Assembly: GCF_055900595.2 (NCBI RefSeq)
Contig: NZ_CM148325.1
Reading direction: 5' to 3' (one strand)
DNA: 64,000 nt
Shown here: positions 40,192-40,248 of the stretch, piece after piece
Layout of the letters: every line of letters starts with the position of its first letter
Numbering within the stretch: the first letter of the stretch is position 1
Notes under the pieces: generated by a model
Databases searched by the model: none
Seen by the model: the letters and a program-made list of their open reading frames with translations, nothing else
What the model was told of the DNA's origin: nothing
Translations under genes and position numbers: made by a program

Positions 40192-40248
40192 ATATCTGCA
40201 TCACCCGACAGCCCACGGGCTGTTGGGTCACTCAATAAGGATAGTGTT

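Follow-up and report, generated by a model that had tools for sequence, protein, structure and literature searches.

A structurally conserved RNA hairpin without a U-tract follows the major pilin gene in a divergent yad fimbrial operon of Escherichia coli

In a yad-type fimbrial operon, a strong RNA stem-loop lies in the spacer that separates the major pilin gene from the chaperone gene (40203-40228, + strand; positions are those of the window, i.e. the whole 64-kb stretch of DNA that was analysed). This hairpin is a conserved, functional-looking intercistronic RNA element of a known kind that is linked to pilin excess. It is improbable by chance, its position and structure are kept among relatives, and a U-tract behind the stem is missing. 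We favour the explanation that it is a 3'-end-protecting element of differential mRNA decay and give this an even chance of being correct.

According to annotation and Pfam searches, folK and panB enclose genes for, in this order, pilin, chaperone, usher, three minor subunits and adhesin. Comparison with the K-12 locus showed that order and flanks match yadN-yadV-htrE-yadMLKC. PGAP gene calls were taken from the identical record NZ_CP098223; the window was 100% identical to the chromosome of E. coli Z0117EC0005 over the compared stretches of 2 kb and 1.9 kb. The first gene of the operon (39622-40191, + strand) encodes a YadN-type major pilin of 189 aa which is 53% identical to K-12 YadN (Pfam PF00419 (Fimbrial), E = 3e-13; 'fimbrial protein' in PGAP). 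Its stop codon TAA is at 40189-40191. The gene for a periplasmic fimbrial chaperone of the YadV/EcpD-type follows (40249-40992, + strand; PapD_N, E = 2e-43; PapD_C, E = 3e-19); the product is 55% identical to K-12 YadV. Because position and gene order match K-12 yad and the proteins are identical to this extent, the operon is a divergent yad allele of E. coli. This allele was present in 14 of 5,426 complete E. coli genomes. A preliminary description of this DNA had put the hairpin just past the stop codon of a major subunit gene and ahead of a chaperone gene. The stop codon, the chaperone ATG at 40249, the Pfam matches and the K-12 identities agree with this.

Downstream, an outer-membrane usher gene of the HtrE-type (41025-43631, + strand; Usher, E = 3e-160, plus PapC_N and PapC_C) is followed by three minor subunit genes and a tip-adhesin gene (YadM/L/K/C-type, 43648-46657, + strand), which were assigned from ORFs, Pfam and annotation and are ordered as in K-12 yadMLKC. 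A Fimbrial domain was detected in three of these four. In the Pfam search the product of 44229-44825 had no Fimbrial match and only a sub-threshold match to DUF2574. The adhesin product has 410 aa. Another hairpin, GC-rich and with 9 bp, was found by the hairpin scan 7 nt past the adhesin stop codon (CGCCGGCAGG-TTCC-CCTGCCGGT, then TTTAA; 46664-46686, + strand, -17.6 kcal/mol). We infer that it likely is the terminator which closes the operon ahead of panB.

The chaperone start is annotated by PGAP as ATG 40258, and an alternative ATG is located in frame at 40249. The latter is 7 nt past the Shine-Dalgarno sequence AAGGA (40237-40241) and therefore appears to be the more plausible start. Close relatives keep both ATGs (ATGACNAGGATG). 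At the other end of the pilin gene, a non-coding, AT-rich stretch of 500 nt (39119-39621) separates it from folK. The best sigma-70-like match therein is at 39213-39242 (10/12). Presumably this is the H-NS-silenced regulatory region that was described for yad in ExPEC; silencing of the Yad operon by H-NS was reported in a 2026 study.

For positions 40208-40223 the preliminary description had given the sequence ACAGCCCACGGGCTGT, which is exactly what the window contains, and had folded it as ACAGCCC-AC-GGGCTGT. The fold is real and strong; however, a stem of 7 bp with a loop of 2 nt is sterically impossible. Those positions are the core of a larger stem-loop which consists of a 5' arm (40203-40213), the loop CACG (40214-40217) and a 3' arm (40218-40228). 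The predicted stem has 11 bp, among them 7 G-C pairs and one G.U pair (40207-40224), and begins about 11-12 nt past the pilin stop codon. Folding energy, which had been proposed as a check, amounted to -20.4 kcal/mol for the isolated hairpin and to -21.8 kcal/mol for the whole 57-nt spacer (z = -3.1 against dinucleotide shuffles of the spacer). The hairpin was retained in the MFE and centroid folds in a context of 141 nt, and core pairs had a probability of 0.998-0.999 in a context of 231 nt. An outer helix in the MFE fold that would sequester the Shine-Dalgarno sequence was dropped as too weak and not conserved.

How often would such a hairpin arise by chance? Both strands of the window were scanned for ungapped stems of at least 9 pairs. 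Eight hairpins reached -20 kcal/mol or better, compared with a mean of 0.47 in 15 dinucleotide shuffles. Therefore, the chance of encountering one such hairpin within a given 57-nt spacer is about 2e-4, and a chance inverted repeat was excluded by the shuffle controls. Other strong hairpins in the window, which form the background for this rarity estimate, are located at 29169-29196, 61757-61785, 14179-14208, 19532-19559 and 54540-54567 (-17 to -22.5 kcal/mol). These five are near-perfect palindromes that fold on both strands and probably represent bidirectional terminators or REP-like elements. An Rfam scan of 39000-41500 with E-values up to 10 returned two chance snoRNA matches and nothing at the hairpin.

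The spacers between pilin and next gene of relatives were obtained from the E. coli collection, a scan of the genome collection, a protein search and contig look-ups. A peptide scan of genome contigs yielded 3 loci only; further relatives came from the protein search and contig look-ups. A metagenome scan with a DNA pattern from stop codon to chaperone start matched a single contig. As the 161 bases of it that were read do not differ from the window, the scan added no new variation. A strong hairpin was present after the pilin stop codon in all 18 YadN-type loci examined, at about -14 to -26 kcal/mol. It begins 9-16 nt past the stop codon, and 32 nt past it in the K-12-type alleles. In close relatives, i.e. 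other E. coli, E. albertii and Pseudocitrobacter vendiensis, the hairpin can be aligned. In more distant relatives the hairpins at this site are unrelated in sequence; these relatives are P. faecalis, P. corydidari, [Enterobacter] lignolyticus, metagenome contigs and an E. coli allele with 74% pilin identity. Loops vary among relatives (CACG, CAAG, CTTCA, AGTAA, CGAAA), which argues for a structural role independent of sequence.

Covariation was examined in an alignment of 8 sequences (A6) that is in register and trimmed at the stem end. Two other alignments were left out of the counts: a MAFFT alignment (A3), in which the 3' arm of three E. albertii sequences was out of register, and a covariance-model alignment (A5), which contained - strand self-matches and one chance match. 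In A6 94.8% of the cells were standard-paired. Both-sided changes were observed in 5 of the 11 pairs (C-G to U-A twice, A-U to G-C, A-U to U-A and G-C to A-U). The covariation score was 0.411 as against 0.213 +/- 0.038 in shuffles, none of 500 of which reached it; slid registers scored 0.113 or less. In the K-12-type yad allele a double change from C-G to U-A distinguishes two E. coli strains. Thus, comparison of the relatives indicates that the structure of the hairpin is conserved with compensatory changes.

Next, the question was which nucleic acid and which strand carry the structure. The + strand fold was up to 7.9 kcal/mol more stable than that of the - strand and never more than 0.9 kcal/mol less stable. 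Stems of several relatives contain G.U pairs on the + strand, equivalent to A.C mismatches on the - strand, and none of the non-paired cells of A6 was an A.C. The structure was therefore selected in the sense transcript, as RNA and not as a DNA palindrome or an antisense RNA. A DNA operator or cruciform and an antisense-strand RNA were ruled out by this G.U asymmetry, by half-sites that change freely and by the absence of a convergent gene or a - strand U-tract.

These data also bear on the proposal that the element has no RNA function whatsoever and is a DNA palindrome for protein binding, a REP-like repeat or a chance inverted repeat. Its core is indeed a perfect 7+7 DNA palindrome. Yet half-sites change freely while pairing stays, G.U pairs break the DNA symmetry in favour of + strand RNA, and unrelated sequences are located at the same site in relatives. 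The hairpin sequence was found as one copy in the window when up to 3 mismatches were allowed, and at one place per genome in the 14 carriers among 5,426. It is single-copy, restricted to these 14 E. coli genomes and devoid of a REP consensus, and REP/BIME or another dispersed repeat was ruled out. With chance excluded by the shuffles, we regard the absence of an RNA function as largely refuted and as highly improbable.

Several side observations were made in the collected loci. Two tandem YadN-type pilin genes are present in P. vendiensis, P. corydidari and two uncultured or read-assembly contigs; the window carries one pilin gene. Behind the upstream copy, a strong hairpin of its own is followed by some 200 nt of leader-like sequence. 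Both tandem copies of P. vendiensis (contig 1731-3067) have their own hairpin; for the remaining three tandem loci this was confirmed in the upstream copy. A protein search returned E. albertii and Pseudocitrobacter as the nearest pilin relatives. When 39119-46700 of the window was compared with 2478-5564 and 1-1185 of the P. vendiensis contig, the yad operons were 93.3% identical in DNA over the pilin and chaperone genes and the 5'-terminal two-thirds of the usher gene, and the flanking pcnB/folK only 80.3%. This suggests that the entire yad operon allele moved between genera via recombination at the syntenic site. The strain itself belongs, as judged by its core genes, to a divergent E. coli lineage. 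Identities of at least 99% to the core genes at 30000-33000 and 37227-39118 were found in only 8-9 of the 5,426 complete genomes; the bulk of these genomes is 95-99% identical in mrcB-hrpB and 90-95% in pcnB-folK. Compared with K-12, panB-panC and pcnB-folK are about 91% identical.

What is the mechanistic nature of the hairpin? According to the preliminary description it is a partial terminator of a type frequent in fimbrial operons. The general part of this claim is recognised: comparative work on the fimbrial clusters of Salmonella credits rho-independent stem-loops on the 3' side of the subunit gene with securing an excess of the structural subunit (PMC3373541), and hairpins after the pilin gene are also present at sfmA, elfA, ecpA and K-12 yadN. 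As to the specific part, stem and loop are terminator-like and the tail is not. An 11-bp stem with a 4-nt loop downstream of a gene lies within the limits of an intrinsic terminator (about 5-14 bp, loop of 3-8 nt). The stem is, however, followed by a U-poor tail that leads into the chaperone ribosome-binding site (CACUCAAU, 40229-40248, + strand). The first 8 nt past the stem contain 2 U (UCACUCAAUAAGG); a U-tract is missing at the DNA level alike, with 2 T in 8 nt (CACTCAAT). The terminator scan demanded at least 5 T in the 8 nt directly 3' of the stem, and the hairpin was not called as a consensus terminator (tail CACUCAAUAAGG). The part comprising tail and ribosome-binding site (AATAAGGA) is invariant in the 8 sequences of A3 and shows small changes in more distant relatives. 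Across the clade of this allele the 8 nt past the stem contain 0-4 U; some tails are A-rich and no consistent tract is present.

A partial intrinsic, i.e. Rho-independent, terminator would release some of the polymerases at the hairpin, and read-through would supply chaperone and usher. The position past the stop codon, the GC-rich stem and the short loop are all typical of a terminator. The orthologous K-12 spacer has a 13-bp hairpin that is followed by UUUUAAUU, the ecpA hairpin is followed by UUUAUU, and the statement on rho-independent stem-loops in fimbrial clusters is of the kind made in reviews (PMC3373541). Against these points, the terminator scan does not call the hairpin, and the tail, with three C's and 2 U in 8 nt, would be expected to form a stable RNA:DNA hybrid. 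Further, the stems of relatives co-vary and their tails are not enriched in U. Sequence comparison thus indicates that selection in this clade preserves the helix and not a module of helix plus U-tract. For this allele the name 'differential-expression hairpin' is well founded, whereas the sequence gives no support to 'partial intrinsic terminator'. Even a hairpin that lacks a U-tract can, together with NusA/NusG, make RNA polymerase pause or terminate in vivo. All in all, partial termination is a possibility about which we are doubtful. Because the hairpins of K-12 and E. albertii P0006 (the latter followed by UUUU) carry U-tracts, termination may be an ancestral or parallel function of the yad hairpins.

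A helix that is kept in the absence of a U-tract fits a barrier to 3'-exonucleases or a processing element better than a classical partial terminator, and a 3'-end-protecting or processing role is at least as likely for this allele as a terminator role. By protection of the 3' end the stem-loop would make the level of pilin mRNA independent of that of the assembly genes downstream. Intrinsic termination at the hairpin is expected to be weak since the stem has no U-tract. An endonuclease would cut the polycistronic transcript somewhere downstream of the hairpin. The 3'-to-5' exonucleases PNPase and RNase II would degrade back and stall at the GC-rich 11-bp stem, and a stable monocistronic pilin mRNA would remain with its 3' end just past 40228. 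This would be differential operon decay of the malE-malF type. Per fibre, pilin copies far exceed those of chaperone, usher and minor subunits, and the need for an excess of the major subunit is established (PMC3373541). The hairpin is stable and directly follows the end of the upstream cistron, whose product is needed in larger amounts. Structure is conserved rather than sequence, as seen in the compensatory changes in close relatives and the unrelated hairpins in distant ones. Two points we count against a stabiliser: the short spacer together with a chaperone gene that is presumably translated, which concerns the site of the endonucleolytic cut, and the U-tracts of the K-12-type allele and of E. 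albertii P0006. The Term-seq tables of Adams et al. for K-12 have no entries for yadN, yadV or ecpD, and those of Dar and Sorek none for yadN or ecpA. The absence of yadN from the K-12 tables is explained by silencing of the operon by H-NS.

Comparable elements are known. In E. coli 3' protective structures set the stoichiometry within operons, e.g. in malE-malF, and the 3' end of papA mRNA is an RNase-resistant structure (PMC5927463). The malE-malF element and the set of Dar and Sorek (2018) resemble the window hairpin in being conserved stem-loops at the 3' boundary of a cistron that is needed in excess, and the proposed action as a barrier to 3'-5' exonucleases is that of malE-malF (PMC5927463). 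In contrast, the malE-malF hairpins are REP elements whereas the window hairpin is single-copy and not REP-like, and the Dar and Sorek structures mostly reside inside the downstream coding region and not in the spacer. Among fimbrial clusters, the stem-loops of pap, fim, sfm, elf and ecp share the position of the yad hairpin, in the spacer downstream of the major subunit gene. Their presumed purpose is the same, an excess of subunit over biogenesis proteins. Sequence similarity between the window hairpin and these stem-loops is absent. For CFA/I, differential decay was reportedly described by Jordi et al. in 1993.

Five further chaperone-usher spacers of K-12 were folded. Those after sfmA, elfA and ecpA have strong hairpins, that after fimA a weaker one (FimR2), and the yehD spacer had no hairpin. 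Unlike the window hairpin, those of ecpA and K-12 yadN have a U-tract and the appearance of genuine intrinsic terminators. K-12 yadN-yadV is the closest case: the operon is orthologous, it occupies the same chromosomal site (folK...panB), and its hairpin likewise follows the pilin stop codon and precedes the Shine-Dalgarno sequence of the chaperone gene. This hairpin is nevertheless AT-rich, with 13 bp, a 12-nt loop, a distance of 32 nt to the stop codon and UUUUAAUU behind the stem, whereas that of the window is GC-rich with 11 bp, a 4-nt loop and no U-tract. The two spacers cannot be aligned.

A different parallel is drawn by fimA. The Term-seq 3' end ('primary') of its well-expressed mRNA, at 4543708, is directly past a GC hairpin (PMC7815308), and the fimA-fimI spacer sequence has no U-tract after this hairpin. 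K-12 RefSeq annotates the sRNA fimR2 (b4838) in this spacer (775-809 of the extracted sequence), and its 3' end coincides with the fimA Term-seq 3' end. By analogy the yad hairpin may be the core of a 3'UTR sRNA: RNase E would cleave close to the stop codon of the pilin gene and again right behind the hairpin, and the resulting RNA of some 35-40 nt would act in trans. The geometry corresponds to fimR2, which begins 11 nt past the fimA stop and ends 20 nt before fimI, which is processed by RNase E from fimAICDFGH (PMC9723502), and which likewise contains a GC hairpin without a U-tract in the spacer after the major pilin gene. Similarity in sequence is, however, absent. FimR2 has a single-stranded seed of 18 nt and a GGGA loop that is bound by CsrA; the yad element has a single-stranded 5' part of only 11 nt, conserved in close relatives alone, and a CACG loop that is not conserved. 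Neither this loop nor those of the relatives has a GGA motif for CsrA. An Rfam match is missing and the yad operon is normally silent. We consider such an sRNA core improbable. That a small, stable RNA made of the hairpin and the preceding 11 nt is released from the yad transcript and acts in trans, in parallel to FimR2, is, if anything, slightly more improbable. If true, the yad small RNA might target, e.g., other adhesin or motility genes, and 'pilin-3'UTR sRNAs' would be a general feature of chaperone-usher operons.

The hairpin may also act on translation, as an insulator that blocks ribosomes or 30S subunits from sliding from the pilin cistron and re-initiating at the chaperone start, so that the chaperone would be translated solely through its own, weaker initiation. 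A location past the stop codon (40191), just beyond the footprint of a terminating ribosome, and ahead of the Shine-Dalgarno sequence (40237) is compatible with this. So is a weak alternative helix of UAUCU (40193-40197) with GGAUA of the Shine-Dalgarno region. This helix, however, adds only about 1 kcal/mol and is not conserved, with ATATCT replaced by ATCTCT or GACCCT in relatives. Moreover, a gap of 57 nt already precludes classical coupling. A translational insulator is an improbable explanation.

As the covariation documents, yad fimbrial operons retain an RNA hairpin right behind the major pilin gene although its sequence turns over completely between alleles. The mildly instructive point is that an entire clade retains the helix but no U-tract, which hints, in a small yet concrete way, that in some chaperone-usher operons protection or processing of mRNA 3' ends sets the subunit stoichiometry, and not classical partial termination. 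The practical value is modest: the hairpin helps to define 3' UTR boundaries in annotation and to interpret the unequal levels of yadN and downstream transcripts that were reported for Yad fimbriae in ExPEC.
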